Counted from the stretch's first letter, positions 19,643-28,815 are shown. The stretch is DNA of 64,000 nt from Dehalococcoidia bacterium (GCA_965207225.1 CBDBLV010000004.1:160001-224000), one strand, 5' to 3'. A program made the numbers and translations. The notes: generated by a model from the letters alone, not told the origin.

Positions 19643-19903
19643 GGATTCCTCACGGGGCGTCGGAATGGGGAAGGGGGTCAGGGAGGGGGGCGGCCTCGGG
19701 CGATGCGGGGTTGGGGAGGTGGGGGTGGGTCTTCGTCATGGGGTGACGGGTCGGTGGTATGGGGGCCGACCGCCGCTCGCGCTTCGGGGGCCTCAGCACG
19801 AGCGGCCCCGCCGACGGGGAGGGTGTCAACGAAGGACGCTCCTACGGGTAAGGGTGTGGATTCAGTTATGGGCGTGAGAGATTCCTCGCGGGGCATCGGA
19901 ATG
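19643..19903 (+). repeat. Cluster of REP-like palindromes (family B x2, CGCTCG...CAGCACGAGCG type, GTAG-type ending CCTAC)
   Basis: Family B at 19643 and 19879; GGGCCTCAGCACGAGCG (~19788) recurs at ~28315; GACGCTCCTAC at ~19835. Confidence 0.65.
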
Positions 19904-21033
19904 GGATGGGGGGCGGGGATGACGGTTAGGTCAGGCGGGTCTTCGCCGTAGTTGGGGTTGTCATCGTAGGGCGGGAAGTAGGGGGGTGGGTCATTATCAT
20001 CATCGGGGTCGGGGTCATTGTCGTCTTCGTCATCGGGGTCTTCATTTTCGAATAGGTAGTCTTCGACGTAGGCCTTCTCGTCCTCTTCCAAGGCATCCAT
20101 TACGGCGAAGTATTCGTCTTCTTCGTGGGGCCAGGGATCGTCGGGGTCTACGAGGCCGTATTTGCGCCGCTCATCCAGGGGAACGAGGTCTCTCCAGGGC
20201 CACCACTTGTCTCCGGGCTGGGCTTTGCGTACGGGGAGGAGGTCGCGGAAGTCGAGGTCGCCTCTGTCTACGTTGTCCTGGAAGACCTTCTTGATGAGGT
20301 TGTCGATCTGCTCTTCGTCGGTGAGCTGTTTGGGGGCCTTGGCCTGGGCGGACCAGGCCCGGATGATGAGCTGGAGGCATCGGTTGATCTGGGTGTAGTC
20401 GAGGGGGCGCGTGCTCAAGAGGCGGTTGGTCAACGAGCGGAGGAGGGCGATTTCGCCTTCGATGTCCGGGCTGTCGATGGACAGCCGGGGCAGGGAAGGA
20501 GAAGTGTGGGACAGGGAGCGGCGACGGTTGGGGCGTCGGCCCCTGGGCCTTCGGCCGCGCCCGACGGGGCGGGAAGTCTTCCGCGGCTTGCGGCCGCGGG
20601 CATCCGTGTCCTGGTAGGTAGCCTGGGCACGGGGACTCTTCCGCGGTGCAGCACCGCAGGCATCCGCTTCTACGCCCAGTGAGGCGGAGCGGGGACTCTT
20701 CCGCGGCGCAGTGCCGCAGGCATCCGCTTCTACGCCCGGTGAGGCGGAGCGGGGATTCTTCCGCGGCGCTGTGCCGCAGGCATCCGTGCCCTGGTAGGTG
20801 GCCTGGGTACGGGGACTCTTCCGCGGCGCTGTGCCGCAGGCATCCGTGCCCTGGCAAGCAGCCTGGGTACGGGGGTTCTTCCGCGGTCTGCGGCCGCGGG
20901 CATCCGCGAGGGGGTCGGGCTTAAGGAGACCAACCGCCTCTTGAGCAGGCGCCCCTTTTTGGGGGCGTCGGGGGCCCGGTTTGGCGGGTCCCCTGTTTGA
21001 CAAGGTCTTGTTGTGAAGTTTGGATGTAGACAT
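19678..21033 (-). CDS. Hypothetical protein with basic 20-aa repeats, a helical core (EGEIALLRSL) and an acidic tail
   Basis: 451-aa ORF with a sigma70-like promoter directly upstream; 3' end runs through REP-like DNA, so the true end is uncertain. Confidence 0.55.
   Translation of the reverse strand: MSTSKLHNKTLSNRGPAKPGPRRPQKGAPAQEAVGLLKPDPLADARGRRPRKNPRTQAACQGTDACGTAPRKSPRTQATYQGTDACGTAPRKNPRSASPGVEADACGTAPRKSPRSASLGVEADACGAAPRKSPRAQATYQDTDARGRKPRKTSRPVGRGRRPRGRRPNRRRSLSHTSPSLPRLSIDSPDIEGEIALLRSLTNRLLSTRPLDYTQINRCLQLIIRAWSAQAKAPKQLTDEEQIDNLIKKVFQDNVDRGDLDFRDLLPVRKAQPGDKWWPWRDLVPLDERRKYGLVDPDDPWPHEEDEYFAVMDALEEDEKAYVEDYLFENEDPDDEDDNDPDPDDDNDPPPYFPPYDDNPNYGEDPPDLTVIPAPHPIPMPREESLTPITESTPLPVGASFVDTLPVGGAARAEAPEARAAVGPHTTDPSPHDEDPPPPPQPRIARGRPPP
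20577..20906. repeat. Tandem repeat, 60-bp period, about 5.5 copies
   Basis: TCTTCCGCGG-N7-CCGC(A/G)GGCATCCG recurs exactly every 60 bp; in frame with ORF 19678-21033. Confidence 0.95.
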
Positions 21034-21047
21034 TAGGTCTGAACGTT

Positions 21048-21075
21048 AGTATAGAACGTATATGGCAGTAGTCAA
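21048..21075 (-). promoter_or_regulatory. Sigma70-like promoter TTGACT-N16-TATACT with overlapping GAAC (LexA-like) half-sites
   Basis: Reverse complement of 21048-21075; GAAC at 21041 and 21054, 13 bp apart. Confidence 0.6.
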
Positions 21076-21207
21076 GAGGCTTTGGGAGCATTTTGGGGGG
21101 ATTTTCCCCCGGCCCCCTGGGGAACCCTCTCCGCCTAGCGCCCCGGGAGTAATATCAGTCCCGCCGGTGTTACGTTGCGGGAGCAAATCGGCGCTGCACT
21201 TTCACGG

Positions 21208-21326
21208 GGAACCCTCTCCCCCTTGGTCCCCCTCTCCCTTAGGGCCTTTAAGGGAGAGGGGGAGAGAAGAACAGAGGCCCAGGTGCGTGCAGAGCACGCA
21301 CCTGGGCCTCTAGTTCAGTACTGGGG
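21208..21326 (+). repeat. Intergenic repeat family A, copy 1 (variable 18-bp hairpin 21273-21311)
   Basis: GGAACCCTC...CCCCTCTCCC...GGGAGAGGGGG...GAACAGAGG[stem]CCTCTAGTTC..TACTGGGG. Confidence 0.92.
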
Positions 21327-21373
21327 AGGGGAGGAGATTCCTCACGGGGCATCGGAATGGGAAAGGGATGGGG

Positions 21374-22300
21374 TTATTCGGTCATGTTTATGCCGGCTTC
21401 GAGGCCGGCGTACATGTAGGTCATGGCGGGGACCTTGTAGTCGCCCCAGCGGTCGGTGAAGGCTTCGATGTCTTCGGGGGAGACGGCCCGGCCCTCCATA
21501 AAGACGTTGGAGATGGTCTTGAGGAGGTAGAGGTCGGAGGTGGGGAGTACGTCGAAGCGGCCGAGGGAGTGGCAGAGGATGCGCTGGGCGGTCCACACGC
21601 CGATGCCACGGTAGGCGACGAGGGTCTCGATGACGGAGTCGTTGCTCATATCGTGGAGGGCGTCGAGGTCCAGTTCGCCGGTCGATACGGCCTCGGACAT
21701 CCGGTGGATGTACTCGGACTTCCGGGCGGAAAGCTTGCATGCCTTAAGCTCTTCGACACCGGCTTCCATGAAACGCTGGGGAGTAGGGGAGAGCCAGAAC
21801 TCCTCGCCGTAGAAAACGGCGCTCCGGCCGTATTTTTCGATGAGTCGGCGCTGCATGGTGAGGGCGACGGCGGTGGAAAGCTGCTGGCCGAGGATGGTGC
21901 CGACGAGGGCCTCGAAGAGGTCGACGTCCTGGCCGGGCTTCAGGCCCCGGAACTGCCGTGCGGCCTTTCCCAGGCCTGCGTCCTGCTCGGCCATTTCGTA
22001 GAAACCGGTGAGATCGTAGTCGGTACACAGGCGCCATTTCACCTCAGATACAAGCGACTGCATGGAGGCTTCTTCCAACTCCTCTGCCTCGGCCCGGATT
22101 TCGAGCATGGGGTCTTCGACGCCGCCTGAGGAGGAAACTGTCAGGAGGGCGGGTCGGGAGTTGGCGCTAGTGACTCTTTTCCACACGCTGTCTTCGAACT
22201 TCTCAACGCCGATGCCCTCGGCGTACCAGCAGGCGCGTCGGGCAGTGAGCTCGAAGTTGAAGGGTGGAACGGGTTGGATGCGGGCGGTAAGGGTTTCCAA
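21374..22300 (-). CDS. AlkA-like DNA-3-methyladenine glycosylase (HhH-GPD)
   Basis: FEALVGTILGQQLS, LVAYRGIGVWTA HhH, PTSD; probable TTG start just after extended -10 TGcTATACT (22311-22319). Confidence 0.85.
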   Translation of the reverse strand: METLTARIQPVPPFNFELTARRACWYAEGIGVEKFEDSVWKRVTSANSRPALLTVSSSGGVEDPMLEIRAEAEELEEASMQSLVSEVKWRLCTDYDLTGFYEMAEQDAGLGKAARQFRGLKPGQDVDLFEALVGTILGQQLSTAVALTMQRRLIEKYGRSAVFYGEEFWLSPTPQRFMEAGVEELKACKLSARKSEYIHRMSEAVSTGELDLDALHDMSNDSVIETLVAYRGIGVWTAQRILCHSLGRFDVLPTSDLYLLKTISNVFMEGRAVSPEDIEAFTDRWGDYKVPAMTYMYAGLEAGINMTE

Positions 22301-22357
22301 GTCGGGGGTCAGTATAGCATTGGAGAAGCAGCCGGTGAGAGGAGCCTCTTTGAGGTA

Positions 22358-22387
22358 GTTGACACGCATCGTATCAACAAACATAAT
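22358..22387 (+). promoter_or_regulatory. Promoter of hspR-grpE-dnaK (TTGACA-N17-CATAAT) overlapped by a HAIR-like inverted repeat GTTGA-N11-TCAAC
   Basis: TTGACA 22359-64, CATAAT 22382-87; TTGA-N11-TCAA spacing equals that of the HAIR consensus. Confidence 0.7.
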
Positions 22388-22427
22388 GGCTATAGCATTA
22401 TCAGAGATAACACGGTAAAGAGAAGGA

Positions 22428-22784
22428 ATGAGGCAGATGAGACGAGAGGGCGTGTACGTGATGCGGGTCGCGTCCCGGCTTTCGGGGATGCACCCACAGA
22501 CACTGAGGAAGTACGAACGGGTCGGGCTCCTGGCCCCGACGCGAAGCGGTGCATTGCGGATGTATTCCGACGAGGACATAGCCCTCCTAAAGATGATAAA
22601 GTATTTGATTGGCAACGTGGGATTGAACGTAGCGGGGGTGGAGCTGGCCTTGCGCATGAGGTCGGGGCTTAGGGCCCTGAAGAGGCAGGCCGACGCCCTC
22701 CCCGAGGACACTCCCTCCAAGGACAACATGGAACGGACGATAGAGCAGATGCTCCGGCTGATAGAGGCCCCGGAGGCCCGGTAG
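22428..22784 (+). CDS. hspR: HspR-like MerR family heat-shock repressor
   Basis: YVMRVASRLSGMHPQTLRKYERVGL...RMYS...GLNVAGV; first gene before grpE-dnaK. Confidence 0.82.
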   Translation: MRQMRREGVYVMRVASRLSGMHPQTLRKYERVGLLAPTRSGALRMYSDEDIALLKMIKYLIGNVGLNVAGVELALRMRSGLRALKRQADALPEDTPSKDNMERTIEQMLRLIEAPEAR

Positions 22785-22789
22785 ACGAC

Positions 22790-23341
22790 ATGTCGATGGA
22801 CGAGGACTTCAACGAGTTCATCAAGGGTCGGGCGCCGGCCGATTCCGACCTCTCTACAAGGCTGGAAGAAGCTGAGCAGGAGATAAACCGGCTGCGGGAG
22901 CTGTTACAGCGTCATCACGCCGACCATACGAACTACAAGCGCCGGATGGAAGAGACGGAGGCGGAGCGGGCCTCCCGGGCGGCGGCGCACCTGGTTACGA
23001 GCCTGCTACCGGTGCTGGACGACCTGGACCGGGCGACGGGGTCGGGCCCCGAGGCGGACAGCGGGGGAGTCGGGACTGCGCAGGACCGGGTCTGGAAGGA
23101 AGGGATGGAGCTGATAAAACAGAAGCTTATGTCAATACTGGAGAGGGAAGGCGTCCGCAGGATCGAGGCGGTGGGCAAGCCTTTCAACCCGGTGCTCCAC
23201 GAAGCGGTCGCCCCTCATCCGACGGACACGGTGCCGGAGGACACGATAGTCGGGGTACAACAACATGGGTATACGCTCAACGGGGCCCTTTTGAGGCCTG
23301 CGAAGGTTACCGTGGCCCGGAGGCCACAACATACGCATTAG
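22790..23341 (+). CDS. grpE: Nucleotide exchange factor GrpE
   Basis: ADHTNYKRR, LLPVLDDLDRA, FNPVLHEAV, GYTLNGALLRPAKVTV. Confidence 0.95.
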   Translation: MSMDEDFNEFIKGRAPADSDLSTRLEEAEQEINRLRELLQRHHADHTNYKRRMEETEAERASRAAAHLVTSLLPVLDDLDRATGSGPEADSGGVGTAQDRVWKEGMELIKQKLMSILEREGVRRIEAVGKPFNPVLHEAVAPHPTDTVPEDTIVGVQQHGYTLNGALLRPAKVTVARRPQHTH

Positions 23342-23383
23342 TTTAGTCATCAAGCCGTAGGAGGCTACGGAGGTAGGACCAAA

Positions 23384-25306
23384 ATGGCAAAAGTACTTGG
23401 AATAGACCTGGGGACAACCAACTCCTGCATGGCAGTCATGGAGGCGGGAGAACCCAACGTCATAGAAAACGCGGAAGGGGCGCGCACTACGCCCTCGATG
23501 ATCGGGGTGAATGCGAAGTCGGGGGAGAGGTATGTCGGGACCACGGCGAAGCGACAGGCGGTCACGAATCCCGACAACACAGTCTTCTCCATCAAGCGGA
23601 TGATCGGGCGTCGGTTCGGCGACCCGGAAGTGCAGAGGGACATAAAGCTGATGCCCTTCAAGATCGTCCAGGCTGGCAACGGGGACGCCCAAGTCGAGAT
23701 CGGGGGGAAGACGTATTCGCCGCCGGAGATCTCGGCGATGGTGCTGAGGAAGCTGAAGGAGGACGCTGAGGCGAAGCTCGGGGAGACGATCACCGAGGCG
23801 GTGATCACCGTTCCCGCATACTTCAACGACAGCCAGAGGCAGGCGACCAAGGATGCGGGCCGCATCGCGGGGCTGGACGTGCTCCGGATCATCAACGAGC
23901 CGACAGCCGCATCCCTGGCCTACGGCCTGGACAAGGAGGGCGAGAAGACCATCGCCGTGTACGACCTCGGGGGTGGGACATTTGACGTGTCCATCCTTCA
24001 GATAGGCGAGGGCGTGTTCGAAGTGAAGTCGACCAACGGGGACACGCACCTCGGGGGAGACGACTTCGACCAGCGGATAATCGACTGGCTGGTGGCGGAG
24101 TTCAAGCGGGACCAGGGGATCGACCTCCGGCAGGACCGCATGGCCCTCCAGCGCCTGAAAGAGGGTGCCGAGAAGGCCAAGTGCGAGCTTTCGACGGTGA
24201 TGGAGACGGAGATCAACCTGCCTTTCATCACGGCGGACGCCGCGGGGCCGAAGCACATGAATATCTCGCTGTCCCGGGCGAAGCTGGAGCAGCTGGTCGG
24301 GGACCTGGTGGACCGGACCGAGGGCCCGTGCCGCAACGCCTTGAAGGACGCCGAGGTCTCGGCGTCCGACATAGACGAAGTGGTACTGGTCGGGGGGCAG
24401 ACGCGGATGCCCGCGGTGGTGGAAAAGGTGAAGGGGGTATTCGGTCGGGAGCCGCACAAGGGCGTGAACCCGGACGAAGTGGTAGCCATTGGCGCGGGGA
24501 TCCAGGCCGGTGTGCTCAAGGGCGACGTGCAGGACATCCTGCTCCTGGACGTGACGCCGCTGACGCTCGGGATCGAGACCCTGGGCGGCGTGGCAACGCC
24601 ACTTATCCCGCGAAACACAACCATCCCGACATCCAAGTCCCAGGTGTTCTCCACGGCTGCGGACAACCAGCCGAGCGTCGACGTCCATGTGCTGCAGGGT
24701 GAACGGTCCATGGCGGGAGAGAACAAGACCATCGGGCGATTTCTGCTGGACGGGATACTTCCGGCTCCTCGTGGCATGCCGCAGATCGAGGTGGCGTTCG
24801 ACATAGACGCCAACGGCATCCTGAACGTGTCGGCGAAGGACATGGGCACGGGCAAGGAGCAGAAGATCACGATTACGGCAAGCTCGGGGCTGGAGAAGGA
24901 TGAGGTGGAGCGGATGGTGCGGGAGGCCGAGGCCAACGCCGAGCAGGACAAGCAGCGCAAGGAAGAGGTCGAGATCCGGAACAATGCCGACTCCCTGGCC
25001 TACGCTGCGGAGAAGATGCTGCGGGACAACGGGGACAAGGTGCCCGCGGAGCTGAAGTCCGAAGTCGAGGGCAAGATTGCCCAGGTGCGCTCTGCGCTGC
25101 AGTCGGGAGACGCCGCACAGATAAAGCGGGCCTCGGACGAACTCAACGAGTCGATGCAAAAGGTCGGGGCAGCGGTATACAGCCAGCAGCAGGGCCAGGG
25201 GCCGACGGACGGGGCAGACCCTTCAGGCGGAACCCAGCCCGGCCCCGACTGCCCCGGGGGGCCGGGGCAGTCGGGGCCGGTGGAGGGGGAGTTCAGAGAG
25301 GTCTAA
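23384..25306 (+). CDS. dnaK: Chaperone DnaK (Hsp70)
   Basis: [36 protein letters not shown]-terminal VEGEFREV. Confidence 0.98.
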
Positions 25307-25540
25307 GCTTCTCTTTCTTACGGTTCAATGAGGGCCCGACGTGCCAAGCGCGTCGGGCCTTTTTGCTTTTGGGCGTTAGATACGTGACTCTGCTTGCAGG
25401 GAACCCTCACCCCCTTGGTCCCCCTCTCCCCCTCGAGGGACTCGGGGCAGGCTTAGGGCCTGTAAGGGAGAGGGGGAGAAAAGAACAGAGGCATAGGCGT
25501 GTGCGTTGCACACGCCTATGCCTCTAGTTCGGTACTGGGG
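25280..25540 (+). repeat. Direct repeat unit 1: dnaK 3' end + terminator + family A copy 2 (hairpin 25487-25525)
   Basis: 46 bp identical to 26473-26518, then similarity continues to about 26735. Confidence 0.92.
25331..25370 (+). terminator. Intrinsic terminator of dnaK
   Basis: GGCCCGACG...CGTCGGGCC stem followed by T-run. Confidence 0.8.
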
Positions 25541-25770
25541 GAGGGAGAGGAGGAGAGGAAAGTGAGTGGCTAAGAAGATGATAGATTTTGGGTAAGGTGC
25601 TTCAGATCCCTCGCGGAGCATCGGGATGGGACAAGGGGGTCGGGATGGGATAAGGGGAGGGGGAGTTCAGGGAGGTTTAGACCTCCGTTTGTTCTTGCAA
25701 GCCATGAGATGGCCGTACATACTTGTTAGAATGGTGCACGTACAAGAGTGCATTCATCGGAGGTGCAGTG

Positions 25771-26043
25771 TTGGCTATTCCGGTTCGCAGGCCCGCTGAA
25801 GAAACTGCCCGCCTCGGCGATCGTATATACGAAAGAGATATACGACAACGGGTCGAAGCCATCCACCACGGAGAGATTATAGCCATCGACGTTGACAGCG
25901 GGAATTATGTCATTGCAGACGACGTCATTGCGGCGTCAGAGGGTCTGCGCGCCCAACGTCCAAATGCCGATGTGTGGCTAATCCGAATCGGGTATCGGGC
26001 CCTGGGAAGTTTCGGGGGCCATGCTCTGCGGAGACCCGATTGA
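25771..26043 (+). CDS. Small hypothetical protein (DUF5678-like), partner of downstream aspartic protease
   Basis: GGAGG RBS; HHGEIIAIDVDSGNY...RIG pattern; stop overlaps the next start (TTGA). Confidence 0.6.
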   Translation: MAIPVRRPAEETARLGDRIYERDIRQRVEAIHHGEIIAIDVDSGNYVIADDVIAASEGLRAQRPNADVWLIRIGYRALGSFGGHALRRPD

Positions 26044-26579
26044 TCGAGGGCCTCGTAAATTCCGACTATGAAGCCGTCGTAAGCGTTACCCTGCGAAGCC
26101 CGGAGGGGCAAACTCAGGAAGTAGACGCCGTGGTAGACACCGGCTTCAACAGATATCTGACCTTACCGCCTACACTTGTCGCGGAATTGGAAGCGGCTCC
26201 TTTAGGACGCAGCCGGTTGGTGCTAGCGAACGGCAATGAAGACACATTTGAAGTTTGCGCCGTTACGGTTCTCTGGGACGGCCAACCACGGTACGTGGAA
26301 ACCTACGTGGCTGATTCCACACCGCTGATAGGCATGCTTTTGCTCGAAGGACATAGCTTGTACATGCAAATCAAGGACGGCGGGCACGTAACCCCATACA
26401 GCCCGAACAATAAACGCATCTACAAGCCTGTGCAGACACTGCCTCGGCCAGACGCCTTGACGACCAGGGCAAGTGGAGGGGGAGTTCAGAGAGGTCTAAG
26501 CTTCTCTTTCTTACGGTTTAATGGGGGCCCGACGTGCCGAGCACGTCGGGCCCTTTTCTTTGGGGGGTCAGGTACGTGA
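26040..26579 (+). CDS. Clan AA (retropepsin-like) aspartic protease, probably frameshifted near its 3' end
   Basis: AVVDTGFN catalytic motif, LANG, PLIGMLLL; natural end likely near 26413. Confidence 0.75.
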   Translation: MIEGLVNSDYEAVVSVTLRSPEGQTQEVDAVVDTGFNRYLTLPPTLVAELEAAPLGRSRLVLANGNEDTFEVCAVTVLWDGQPRYVETYVADSTPLIGMLLLEGHSLYMQIKDGGHVTPYSPNNKRIYKPVQTLPRPDALTTRASGGGVQRGLSFSFLRFNGGPTCRARRALFFGGSGT

Positions 26580-26735
26580 CTCCGCTCGCTGGGAACCCTC
26601 ACCCCCTTGGTCCCCCTCTCCCCCTCGAGGGACTCGGGGCAGGCTCTTAGGGCCTGTAAGGGAGAGGGGGAGAAGAGAACAGAGGGCGGCATTGGCGCAG
26701 AGCGCCAATGCCGCCCTCTAGTTCATTACTGGGGG
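26473..26735 (+). repeat. Direct repeat unit 2: dnaK 3' end copy + terminator + family A copy 3 (hairpin 26681-26719)
   Basis: Matches 25280-25540. Confidence 0.92.
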
Positions 26736-26806
26736 GAAGGGGAACCATCCTAACCCCAGATTCCTCGCTGGGCATCGGAATGACAGGGCATTGAGCTGAG
26801 CGTCGG

Positions 26807-28150
26807 TTAGCCGACGCCGGCGAGGACGGCAGCACCGGAGCTTTCGGAGCCGGGGTGGCCCGGGGCTCCGTAGAGGGGGCAGCCCGTGCAGCTTCGGGTT
26901 GCGCCGCAGGGGGCGACCTGGGGCAGGCTCGAACCTACGCCAGCGGCGGCTCGGGGCTTGGCTTCGGGCTCTCTGAAGAGGTCCATACGGAGCTGCTTGG
27001 CCCTCGGGGGACGGTGGCCGGGGAAGACCAGGTAGGGCCAGGCGCGCTTTTTGACTACCCCCATGGCTTGTAAATCTCGCCATGAGTCCAAGGTGTGCTG
27101 CCTGCGCTGAAGCAAGATCCGGTCGGCCGCCGTAGGCCCGAGCCCCGGGACGCGGAGCATCTGGTCCCTGGTCGAGTAGTTTATGTCCACCGGGAAGGCG
27201 TCCAGGTTTTCGAGGGCGATGATGGACTTGGGGTCCGTGTCCATGGACAGAAACCCCGCCTCATCGAAGGCGAGCTCTATCTCTTCGTTGGAGAACTTGT
27301 AGATGCGCTTCAGCCAGTCCATCTGGTAAAGCCGGTGGGAGCGGGTCATGGAAGTAGGGGGGTGCTCTTCCAAGGGGGTGTAGGGGATGGGTTGGAAGTT
27401 GGAGTAATAGGCCCGCTTCAGGTTCCACTCGCCATATAGCTGGTCGATTCGGTGGAAGACCTCCCTGTCGGACTCGTTGGCCGCGCCCACCACGAACTGG
27501 GTGACCTGTCCAACCGTCCCACCGGTCCTCTCTTGATTAAGGTCATTGATCCACTCCATGGGGGCCAGGATGTCGCGCTCCAGATCCTTCATCTTGCTCA
27601 GGGTGCGCATCCTATCGACACTTGGGGTCTCGATATTGACGGACAGCCTGGTACCCAGCTTGTGGGCTGCTTCCACGTACTCCCGCTCGACACCCGGCAT
27701 GACCTTGAGGTGGATGTATCCCTTGAACCCGTACTTCTCCCTGATGATCTGCACCACGTCTATGAGCTTGGCGGTGGTCTTAGAGCCGGTGCCCGCCACG
27801 CCGGAGCTGAGGAAGAGGCCGTCCACGGTATGGCGCCGGTGCAGCTCCATGAAGGCGGAGGCCAACTCTTCCCGTTTGAAGGCGAAGCGTTTTCTCGGGA
27901 CCCAGTGGCTGTTGGGGCAGAAGTGGCAGTCCATCTTGCAGAAGTCGGTGAACATGACCCGCATGAGGCTGATGGTCTTGCCATTGGGCATGGACGCCTT
28001 GTAGACGCCGGGCATGGGGTTCTTCTTCGGGTTGGAGTATGGCCCGCGTTCCCTGGTCTTTTTCTGGGGCTGGGACAGGATGTCGTCGCTGGCCATACCT
28101 CCCAGGAGCTGAAGCTTTTCGTAGGTCTCGGGGGTGCGTTTGATGAGCAT
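26807..28150 (-). CDS. Putative DNA modification/repair radical SAM protein with helix-hairpin-helix
   Basis: CKMDCHFC CxxxCxxC motif, GLFLSSG, YIHLK, RLYQMDWL, LRVPGLGP HhH; AGGAG RBS. Confidence 0.88.
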   Translation of the reverse strand: MLIKRTPETYEKLQLLGGMASDDILSQPQKKTRERGPYSNPKKNPMPGVYKASMPNGKTISLMRVMFTDFCKMDCHFCPNSHWVPRKRFAFKREELASAFMELHRRHTVDGLFLSSGVAGTGSKTTAKLIDVVQIIREKYGFKGYIHLKVMPGVEREYVEAAHKLGTRLSVNIETPSVDRMRTLSKMKDLERDILAPMEWINDLNQERTGGTVGQVTQFVVGAANESDREVFHRIDQLYGEWNLKRAYYSNFQPIPYTPLEEHPPTSMTRSHRLYQMDWLKRIYKFSNEEIELAFDEAGFLSMDTDPKSIIALENLDAFPVDINYSTRDQMLRVPGLGPTAADRILLQRRQHTLDSWRDLQAMGVVKKRAWPYLVFPGHRPPRAKQLRMDLFREPEAKPRAAAGVGSSLPQVAPCGATRSCTGCPLYGAPGHPGSESSGAAVLAGVG

Positions 28151-28173
28151 GGGTTGGTCTCCTCTTAGAATAG

Positions 28174-28224
28174 CAACTACATTCGCAATATATATTCTCA
28201 ATATATGTTCTTAATGAATGTTCT
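28174..28224 (-). promoter_or_regulatory. Four 13-bp-period (A/G)TTC repeats upstream of the radical SAM gene; LexA-like operator array
   Basis: ATTC/ATTC/GTTC/GTTC at 28181, 28194, 28207, 28220 in an AT-rich patch; TTGACA on the minus strand at 28241-46. Confidence 0.55.
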
Positions 28225-28408
28225 TATAGTTACATGGAGATGTCAAGGGGGTGGGGTTGGCAATTGATGCGAGCGGTTAACAATGGAAAGTTCTTCTCGT
28301 CGCTCGCACTTAGAGGGCCTCAGCACGAGCGTCTCTGACGAATGGAATGTTGGGCCCGGCCGGTCGGGACTGGTCTACAAGGGTGAACCGAACCTCCACC
28401 CCGCCAGC

Positions 28409-28553
28409 GGAACCCTCTCCCCCTTGGTCCCCCTCTCCCCCTCGAGGGACTCGGGGCAGGCTCTTAGGGCCTTTAAGGGAGAGGGGGAGAGAAGAACAGA
28501 GGCCCACGCCTGCGCCAAAGCGCAGGCGTGGGCCTCTAATTCAGTACTGGGGG
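28409..28553 (+). repeat. Intergenic repeat family A, copy 4 (hairpin 28498-28537)
   Basis: Same flanks as copies 1-3. Confidence 0.92.
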
Positions 28554-28659
28554 AGGAAGGAACGTCACGACTTTATTTCTTCGAGGGGTCACGGGATGGG
28601 GACGAACGACAGGAAATGGCGTTTGCCGGGCCTGATGGTGTGGAGGGATGCGGCCCACC

Positions 28660-28815
28660 CCCCGTTCGACCCTTCGACTGCACCCAGGGTGAGCGGCCCC
28701 TCCGCCGCGGGGATGGATTCCCGATCGGGGTCGGGAATGACGGATTGGGGTGGGAGGATCAGAGGGCCCGTTGGTGCGGGCTTACGCGCCAGATCCCTCG
28801 CGGGGCATCGGGATG
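28660..28815 (+). repeat. Further REP-like palindromes (CCCTTCGAC...CAGGGTGAGCGG; GGATTCCCG...CGGGAATGAC; family B)
   Basis: Short imperfect hairpins in a G-rich intergenic tract. Confidence 0.55.

Follow-up and report, generated by a model that had tools for sequence, protein, structure and literature searches.

The window analysed here is a stretch of 64,000 nucleotides from a Dehalococcoidia bacterium (GCA_965207225.1, CBDBLV010000004.1:160001-224000, or G000:C4:160001-224000 in our numbering). It belongs to an assembly (G000) of 4.03 Mb in 5 contigs, with 60.5% G+C and 8.3% contamination. The window carries four copies of a repeat unit, at 21208, 25400, 26592, and 28409, each with a perfect 18-bp inverted repeat in a structure that we call hairpin B. 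A previous description made from the DNA alone, hereafter the sequence-only reading, had reported these four copies, and their positions, loops, and arms were all confirmed. From 5' to 3' a unit consists of a C-rich leader (GGAACCCTC...), a hairpin A, a purine run, hairpin B, and a G-rich tail. The stem of hairpin A is constant (14 bp) and its loop holds a 24-nt branched insert in three of the four units. Hairpin B is made of an outer GAAC, an 18-nt arm (AGAGG, 11 variable nucleotides, and GC), a loop of 3 or 4 nt, the complementary arm, a bulged A, and GTTC. As had been described, GAAC/GTTC lengthens the stem beyond the single bulged A in three copies, while unit 4 has ATTC and thus one outer mismatch. 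When folded as single-stranded DNA, the four units (128-149 nt) are predicted to form a closed three-way junction of -51 to -57 kcal/mol, with z scores of -8.95 to -9.8 relative to dinucleotide shuffles. The units and their parts are the following.

21208-21335, plus strand: unit 1 (module A, hairpin B, and G-rich tail), predicted fold of -51.3 kcal/mol, z -9.2
21227-21241 and 21249-21263, plus strand: stem of hairpin A of unit 1
21269-21272, plus strand: GAAC of hairpin B of unit 1, with arms at 21273-21290 and 21294-21311 and loop AGA at 21291-21293
21312, plus strand: bulged A on the 3' side of the foot of unit 1, followed by GTTC at 21313-21316
25400-25547, plus strand: unit 2, whose hairpin A loop carries the 24-nt branched insert, z -9.8
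25483-25486, plus strand: GAAC of hairpin B of unit 2, with arms at 25487-25504 and 25508-25525 and loop GTT
25526, plus strand: bulged A on the 3' side of the foot of unit 2, followed by GTTC at 25527-25530
26592-26740, plus strand: unit 3, z -9.2
26677-26680, plus strand: GAAC of hairpin B of unit 3, with arms at 26681-26698 and 26702-26719 and loop AGA
26720, plus strand: bulged A on the 3' side of the foot of unit 3, followed by GTTC at 26721-26724
28409-28557, plus strand: unit 4, z -8.95
28494-28497, plus strand: GAAC of hairpin B of unit 4, with arms at 28498-28515 and 28520-28537 and loop CAAA
28538, plus strand: bulged A on the 3' side of the foot of unit 4, followed by ATTC at 28539-28542 (one outer mismatch)

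The pattern proposed in the sequence-only reading has 51 matches in G000, 44 of them without mismatch in the 11 variable nucleotides (N11). A looser regular expression gave 126 matches, and we retained the 121 with at most three arm mismatches: 100 are perfect, 16 have one mismatch, 4 have two, and a single one has three. The arms are 18 nt long in 112 of the 126 matches, and the loops have 3 nt (n=52) or 4 nt (n=70). The outer helix covaries as well (GAAC/GTTC in 64 cases, AAAC/GTTT in 41), and the AAC and GTT triplets at the foot of hairpin B are invariant. All 121 hairpins are distinct loci and no pair shares both 1.2-kb flanks, which led us to reject the idea that duplicate contigs in a partly contaminated assembly had inflated the copy number. 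According to a crude gene caller, which reproduced the Pfam-supported genes of the window, 107 of the 121 are intergenic. The genome has 71 distinct left arms; 25 copies out of 121 share three arms between them, and two states are common at the majority of N11 positions. Hence, the stems are a combinatorial set of alleles rather than random sequence. The claim that only AGAGG, GC, and the stem length are constant while 11 bp vary stands for pairing and length, and has to be amended for N11, which is mostly two-state with arms that recur. The sequence-only reading had set four things against its own view of the element: a few stem subfamilies, ordinary mismatch rates, variable length, and a match to a catalogued family. 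Subfamilies do exist; mismatches are far below ordinary, the length is fixed, and no Rfam 15 family matches (a permissive threshold let through microRNA-type hairpin noise alone, with at most 32.9 bits for a cut-off of 59).

With the strict pattern, seven of the eight genus mates of G000 were positive (4 to 46 matches each), none of 32 other genomes of the class had a match, and a reversed control pattern gave zero everywhere. The looser pattern identified 2 copies in G004 and 6 in G005, and no copy in three other genera of the family. Across the genus, a genome thus carries between 2 and about 120 copies. When one genome was scanned for each GTDB species, all loci among the matches listed were in metagenome-assembled genomes titled Dehalococcoidia bacterium, and those sequencing-run metadata that are not coded give sponge or marine metagenome. 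The hairpin pattern was absent from the viral contigs searched and the unit from the plasmids searched. On these genomic data, the repeat appears to be confined to one genus of uncultured, sponge-associated Dehalococcoidia, and we found no account of such repeats in Dehalococcoidia in the literature searched.

The pairing of the arms was analysed in an alignment of 82 sequences from nine genomes (1716 cells), collected with a search pattern that fixed the constant columns and did not impose N11 pairing. Standard pairs fill 98.7% of the cells; shuffled sequences reach 82.7%, and sliding the partner lowers the figure to 34-44%. The covariation that the sequence-only reading had suggested looking for is present at 11 of the 22 pairs, and 248 cells have double changes when 73.7 are expected from shuffles. 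RNA helices tolerate G-U pairs. Yet G-T cells are no commoner here than other mismatches (7 versus 22), which is roughly what random single hits would yield. This supports a constraint on arm pairing that acts on DNA and is neither protein-coding nor RNA-specific.

The loops of hairpin B are equally frequent in either orientation. In G000, 138 loop pairs are reverse complements of each other and 165 are identical, with 13 reversed and 16 complemented pairs as controls. When self-complementary loops are removed, 102 reverse-complement pairs remain, compared with 42 +/- 6 in column shuffles, none of which reaches 102 in 2000 trials. A close relative, G008, shows the same (53 reverse-complement, 51 identical, 0 reversed, and 1 complemented, for a null of 14.9 +/- 3.4), and so does the alignment of nine genomes (95, 90, 24, and 17, respectively). 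Both forms of a loop are found on identical arms, e.g., GTT/AAC, TTCA/TGAA, and AGAA/TTCT. The bulge, counted with a strict regular expression, is normal and one-sided at 97 hairpins, copied into both arms at 3 loci (GAACTAGAGG...CCTCTAGTTC), and lost at 1. In one G000/G008 pair of orthologues, hairpin A has a 36-nt loop that is inverted; across G000 one orientation of hairpin A dominates by about 26:1, a ratio that covers short-loop forms only and comes from an incomplete regular expression.

The comparison of orthologous loci tells how the hairpins change. G008 is about 95% identical to G000 around the window locus, and 40 short G008 hairpin regions could be placed on G000 by their unique flanks. 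Syntenic spacers could be compared for 49 G008 hairpins: G000 shares 11 of them, holds a different hairpin in 16 cases, and has none in 22, which shows a high turnover of hairpins between species. At the 11 conserved loci, the loop is the same in 6, flipped in 4, and changed otherwise in 1. Their arms differ at 9 of 396 nt (2.3%), i.e., four compensated pairs and one uncompensated change, a rate biased downward by the choice of loci whose arms differ at no more than 2 positions. The flanks of these loci differ at 76 of 977 nt (7.8%) in the 100 nt upstream and at 75 of 428 nt (17.5%) in the 40 nt downstream. Five of the 11 hairpins are identical in arms and loop despite about 5% genome divergence. 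The notion that the stem changes faster than its flanks is therefore contradicted at orthologous sites. In the replaced cases, the unique left flank and module A align and the divergence starts at hairpin A or B and continues rightwards, downstream modules included. From these alignments, the replaced cases are best described as segment replacement and not as stem rewriting. The same lineage-specific pair change, together with a flip, was found at two separate loci, which points to exchange or concerted change between copies within the lineage.

Taken together, we regard it as probable, with some reserve, that hairpin B is a module of a mosaic non-coding DNA repeat, akin to repetitive extragenic palindromes (REPs) and bacterial interspersed mosaic elements (BIMEs), and that it is kept palindromic by fold-back template switching. 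Fold-back copying within the palindrome, by template switching at replication, would keep the two arms matched: a single event would either erase a new mutation or copy it to the other arm, and the loop may invert. The bulge would usually halt the copied tract and leave the foot asymmetric. The stem versions would be old family alleles and not the product of local hypermutation; recombination or gene conversion among dispersed copies would reshuffle and replace them, with module A as the source of homology. Template switching in replication is described as able to perfect a stem, to make a compensatory change in one step, and to invert a loop (PMC8794818; Monttinen and Loytynoja 2022), and quasipalindrome template switching is reported in E. 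coli (PMC7202029). The perfect stem, the compensatory pair, and the loop inversion are all present at orthologous loci here. What differs is that these sources describe a process in genes and RNA genes, and not the standing state of a repeat family with 1:1 loops. Template switching explains most simply why loops flip, why arm changes come as compensated pairs, and why G-T is not in excess. The sequence-only reading had listed a palindrome rewritten by fold-back synthesis among its options, and copying between arms does fit the loop flips and the one-step compensated pairs.

A second property of the repeat is its orientation. In G000, it matches the local GC skew, computed on coding DNA only, for 111 of the 121 hairpins with windows of 10 kb, for 109 with 20 kb, and for 103 with 50 kb. 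The mean skew in hairpin orientation is +0.10 to +0.19 up to 6 kb either side and, when one hairpin is taken per 30-kb bin, 56 of 66 agree with the skew. In G008, the flank skew is positive for 63 of 65 hairpins with 400 bp masked on each side (mean of 0.143). We rejected the possibility that the signal is an artefact of the repeats themselves, since it persists when the skew is taken from coding DNA alone and the flanks are masked. The strand of a gene matches the all-base skew in only 51.8% of the cases in G000. The skew is in itself very strong in G000 and G008 (about 0.10-0.19 even in coding DNA) and its sign changes every 50-600 kb. Another component of the mosaic, the NTS-like module D, has 130 copies in G000 and is co-oriented with the skew in 124 of them, including 75 of the 77 copies lying more than 600 bp from any B hairpin. 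Its copies in the window are the following.

21336-21362: module D
25607-25635: module D
26757-26786: module D
28707-28741: module D
28792-28815: module D

Because the orientation follows the GC skew, a single-stranded stage of the unit is plausible. The leading strand is usually G-rich, and by this rule the lagging-strand template would be the top strand, in which the bulge follows the stem on its 3' side. The unit would be inserted or retained via a single-stranded stage on one template strand, which would be that of the lagging strand if the skew marks the direction of replication, and the enzyme moving the repeat, if any, would not be a Y1/RAYT transposase. A tentative extension, to which we give a low probability, is that the bulged, strand-locked hairpin and its mosaic partners form the site of a protein that recognises one of the template strands at the fork while it is single-stranded. 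If true, this would mean either RAYT-independent movement of REP-like repeats or a polar signal adopted by the host (priming, fork handling), and the flip-flop of the loops would be a by-product of hairpin extrusion at every round of replication.

Units 2 and 3 are found at the dnaK locus, which allows one to follow the history of two copies. The relevant features are the following.

25330-25362, plus strand: intrinsic terminator of dnaK; a second copy lies at 26523-26555, where the last ~20 nt of dnaK are repeated as well
25660-26590, plus strand: inserted cassette between units 2 and 3, with open reading frames (ORFs) at 25723-26043 and 25974-26579

Unit 2 comes after the dnaK terminator (25330-25362). 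In G002, G004, and G006 the dnaK-rSAM spacer has 95-97 bp and contains the terminator alone, i.e., the empty state. In G000 and G008 it contains the terminator, A, and B, then a 1.1-kb insert with two ORFs, and then again the 3' end of dnaK, the terminator, A, and B, so that unit 3 is part of a direct repeat flanking the insert. Among the 8 spacers compared (G000 and seven relatives), the cassette is present in G000 and G008 only. Neither of its ORFs matches Pfam or PHROGs; the second has a DTGF motif, which we take as a resemblance to retropepsin-type aspartic proteases. The hairpin B of unit 2 is identical in stem and loop at the orthologous G008 site, and in unit 3 of G008 the right half is deleted between two GGCATTG words. 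The module A insert differs between G000 and G008 in both tandem copies, which means that the two copies changed in concert. From its arrangement, the locus looks like an integration by a single crossover left of the hairpin that introduced another B allele. The sequence-only reading had correctly placed units 2 and 3 in one local duplication; it took their unlike stems as a sign that the stem changes faster than its flanks, when they are better seen as different members of the family and not as rewritten in place, one of which (unit 2) is unchanged in G008. A long ORF antisense to dnaK (23132-25159, minus strand) matches the Pfam family NAD-GH (PF10712, E 3e-160), which is a known spurious frame antisense of Hsp70 and not a gene.

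The block of unit 4 is an indel, because contigs of three other samples (X5, X9, and X10) join 28331 to 28710, that of X10 with 11 other letters in between; contigs of unique DNA in X10 differ from the window at about 5% of positions. The equivalent spacer of G008 has the remnant of another hairpin. Contigs of four sequencing runs break at the repeats, and differences at 28518 and 28523, which are 31-37 nt from a contig end, were not used.

These loci bear on an explanation in which the repeat is passive. It would have no mobiliser and would spread by homologous recombination, duplication, and strain-to-strain transfer only, and its strand lock would result from selection against the other orientation (e.g., harmful hairpins on one template strand) and not from oriented insertion. 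The dnaK locus, with a duplication of terminator, A, and B resembling a single-crossover integration, is in line with it, and so are the breakpoints of the replaced cases inside shared modules, the lineage-specific change repeated at two loci, and the lack of Y1, TnpB, IS110, and integron integrase (see below). However, copy numbers of 2 to about 120 within one genus and the absence of a hairpin from the G000 spacer for 22 of 49 G008 hairpins speak against it, and the 121 loci with unrelated flanks would be hard to reach by recombination alone. We consider this explanation unlikely.

We then turn to the genes around the repeats. On the bottom strand, all four window hairpins are followed by a T-rich tail (TTCTTCTCTC) and are flagged as terminator-like by prediction, and three of the four lie just beyond the stop of a minus-strand gene; unit 1, for example, sits 60 nt past the stop of the HhH-GPD gene at 21374-22729 (minus strand). 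Across G000, 75 of 106 genes on the side of module A have their start towards the unit, only 56 of 106 genes on the side of the hairpin run in the direction of a bottom-strand transcript, and the commonest configuration is that of divergent promoters (41 of 106). Judged by these positions, some copies may act as a terminator or insulator for the opposite strand as a side effect, but this leaves the genome-wide orientation of the repeats unexplained. One could go further and propose that the element works at the level of RNA, as a structured small RNA or an intrinsic terminator/insulator whose stem is under selection for RNA folding. The terminator-like hairpins of the window, the frequency of gene starts facing module A, and the fold of the unit into a closed three-way junction are the points in its favour. 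We find it quite improbable, given that G-U pairs are not enriched, that both loop orientations are equally common, that no Rfam family matches, and that the orientation tracks the skew (92-97%) and not the genes, as the co-directional and divergent-promoter counts show.

A family of orphan ORFs always adjoins the repeats, with one member next to unit 1.

19678-21207, minus strand: multicopy orphan ORF (19678-21033) with a promoter-like region (21075-21048), whose start faces the module A side of unit 1

Two related families are concerned, 24 and 39, which share 45% identity over 232 aa. All 9 of their copies adjoin a B hairpin; the start faces the module A side in 7, and the other 2 are found on the hairpin B side. 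The proteins (352-451 aa) have a conserved helical core of ~130 aa and an N-terminus that is repetitive and rich in Arg and Pro. They are of low complexity and match neither Pfam nor PHROGs; their best Atlas score, 0.82, is a lead only.

We searched for enzymes that could mobilise the repeat. The Y1/RAYT transposase (PF01797) is absent from G000 and from all eight genus mates (six single-contig chromosomes, genome completeness of 87-93%), whereas the control fires in 6 of 14 reference genomes. Neither TnpB (PF07282) nor IS110 was found in G000. The tyrosine recombinases of G000 are XerC, XerD, two P4-type integrases, and a fifth PF00589 match left untyped; with the integron-integrase model TIGR02249 we obtained 115-122 bits for a cut-off of 265. 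In a search that did not extend to cd10448 itself, the GIY-YIG matches correspond to UvrC and to one ORF of 98 aa (C4:11612-11908), which has no hairpin within about 700 bp either side. No hairpin-flanked ssn-type gene was found. The multicopy genes of G000 include a large serine recombinase, conjugative-element genes, and IS21 and DDE transposases. This is a genome heavy in mobile DNA, with 20 copies of the 558-aa large serine recombinase, two IS21 families, two DDE insertion sequence (IS) families, and 5-12 copies of conjugative-element genes (VirD4/TraG, VirB4/TraC, TrbL, and Replic_Relax). The large serine recombinase was discarded as a mobiliser, its 20 copies adjoining only 2 hairpins. 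Among multicopy genes, only the orphan ORF family and an IS of the IS481 family regularly adjoin them. The latter is ~1.27 kb long (rve and LZ_Tnp_IS481), its terminal inverted repeat begins with TGTATAGACCGGGG, and each of its four near-identical copies sits in a hairpin A apex, in one orientation or the other, at the following places of G000.

C4:503300-505300: IS481-family IS
C1:38900-40900: IS481-family IS
C4:457200-459200: IS481-family IS
C5:1203300-1205300: IS481-family IS

This IS parasitises hairpin A and was rejected as a partner of the repeat. Several hairpins of G008 are flanked by a diverged relative, with about 81% identity.

Could hairpin B nevertheless be the substrate of a known single-strand recombination system, i.e., a REP with its RAYT, a PATE derived from IS200/IS605, an attC-like site, or an Ssn motif? 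Its conserved foot with an extrahelical base and invariant AAC/GTT would suit such a role. The attC sites of integrons are conserved in structure more than in sequence, have an AAC/GTT foot and a variable apex, and owe their polarity to an extrahelical base, all of which hairpin B shares. Unlike attC sites, it comes with no integrase and no cassette array, has neither RYYYAAC/GTTRRRY boxes nor an unpaired central spacer, and its stems are perfect. The ends of IS200/IS605 and their miniature derivatives have subterminal hairpins and a bias for the lagging-strand template, on which IS608 and ISDra2 act (PMC6006769), and the orientation of hairpin B is likewise tied to a strand asymmetry; here neither TnpA-Y1 nor TnpB is found in G000. 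Genes of the Ssn type are usually flanked by hairpin repeats of 20-50 nt (PMC11893778; Chenal et al. 2025), and the NTS/dRS3 repeats of Neisseria resemble our element as hairpin repeats acting as single-stranded DNA. The bottom strand of module D even reads like NTS (GTCATTCC...GGAATC). In contrast, hairpin B has another foot and a much longer stem, no hairpin-flanked ssn gene was found, and the only small GIY-YIG ORF has no hairpin beside it. With PF01797 in none of the nine genomes of the genus, no TnpB, no integron integrase above cut-off, no GTAG or CGTC tag at the foot, and copies that are dispersed singly, we judge any of these systems very unlikely. The two suggestions of the sequence-only reading in this direction, an HUH/RAYT-type site and an integron-like recombinase substrate, were thus not borne out, the latter also for want of arrayed copies.

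The variable arms gave no sign of being guides or targets: each of their 12-mers has 1.56 matches at other loci, compared with 1.09 for shuffled words. The match of N11 arms to other loci, another point raised from the sequence together with phages, shows no excess beyond chance, and the hairpin pattern is absent from viral contigs and plasmids. The arms do not match their own flanks beyond chance either (16 of 110 share an 8-mer with the flanks, compared with 19.5 +/- 3.8 for permuted flanks). Finally, four unlike stems between near-identical flanks in the window and 71 distinct arms in one genome might evoke an inner stem that is subject to targeted rewriting or in-place hypermutation and that outpaces its flanks. 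On the sequence comparisons made, we give this hardly any credit, because orthologous arms differ at 2.3% of positions versus 7.8% and 17.5% in the flanks, 5 of 11 hairpins are wholly identical after ~5% genome divergence, and the replaced cases alter neighbouring modules too.

The closest match is with REPs. These are palindromes of 20-40 bp with a GTAG or CGTC tag, of which the GTAG class goes with RAYTs and the CGTC class lacks a dedicated transposase (PMC3733652; Di Nocera et al. 2013). Like REPs and BIMEs, the present repeats include short intergenic palindromes in high copy, set in mosaics with other modules, with subfamilies within one genome, several-fold differences in copy number among close relatives, no dedicated transposase (as in the CGTC class), and an IS that targets a hairpin apex (the IS481-family IS in hairpin A, 4 of 4). 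IS1397 inserts likewise in E. coli REPs. The modules P, A (with or without the 24-nt insert), B, and D combine variably and are intergenic and multicopy, as in BIMEs. In terms of miniature inverted-repeat transposable elements, which have terminal inverted repeats and a target-site duplication, the fold predicts a closing helix of the C-rich 5' end with the G-rich 3' tail, but both ends are of low complexity and no duplication could be defined. Differences from REPs are the stem, with 18-22 perfect base pairs when REPs are often mismatched, the loops at flip/flop equilibrium, the 92-97% co-orientation with GC skew, and the lack of RAYT in nine of nine genomes. The tags differ too. The foot reads GAGAA/GAAC...GTTC/AGTAC on the top strand, with no GTAG or GTGG on either strand when GT[AG]G is sought 0-2 nt 5' of the hairpin foot (as delimited in PMC3733652 and PMC6006769). 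The CGTC tag, which in its class is unpaired and goes with loops of 4-5 nt, is absent from the foot of hairpin B; module D, a different module, resembles the class. Hairpin B behaves like a REP inside a BIME-like mosaic, and is an unusual relative of REPs rather than a new kind of system.

Several observations weigh against a REP-like repeat maintained by template switching and locked to a template strand. The strand lock belongs to the whole mosaic and not to hairpin B alone. That the skew marks the direction of replication is something we infer, the complete chromosome of G008 has ~14 switches of polarity, and its dnaA (at 623 kb) lies inside a single + domain (97-696 kb) and not at a polarity switch. 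Hairpin A rarely flips while hairpin B does so 1:1, a contrast that a generic replication error must account for and that stem length or loop size might explain. The two common states at most N11 positions hint at a sequence constraint beyond pairing. No mobiliser was found, no clean pair of filled and empty sites gave a target-site duplication, and the mobility of the repeat as a unit is deduced from presence and absence only.

The repeats would be of use in several ways. With ~120 long perfect palindromes per genome that could be followed across nine species, they make a natural genome-wide data set for template-switch mutation. For annotation, such hairpins should not be taken for RNA genes, CRISPR-like guides, or diversity generators. 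They also bear on how REP-like repeats spread without RAYT, a question that concerns the CGTC REPs too, which have no dedicated transposase (PMC3733652). The Dehalococcoidia repeats offer three measurable handles on it: a near-absolute strand co-orientation, a conserved asymmetric foot, and stems and loops that keep a record of fold-back copying.

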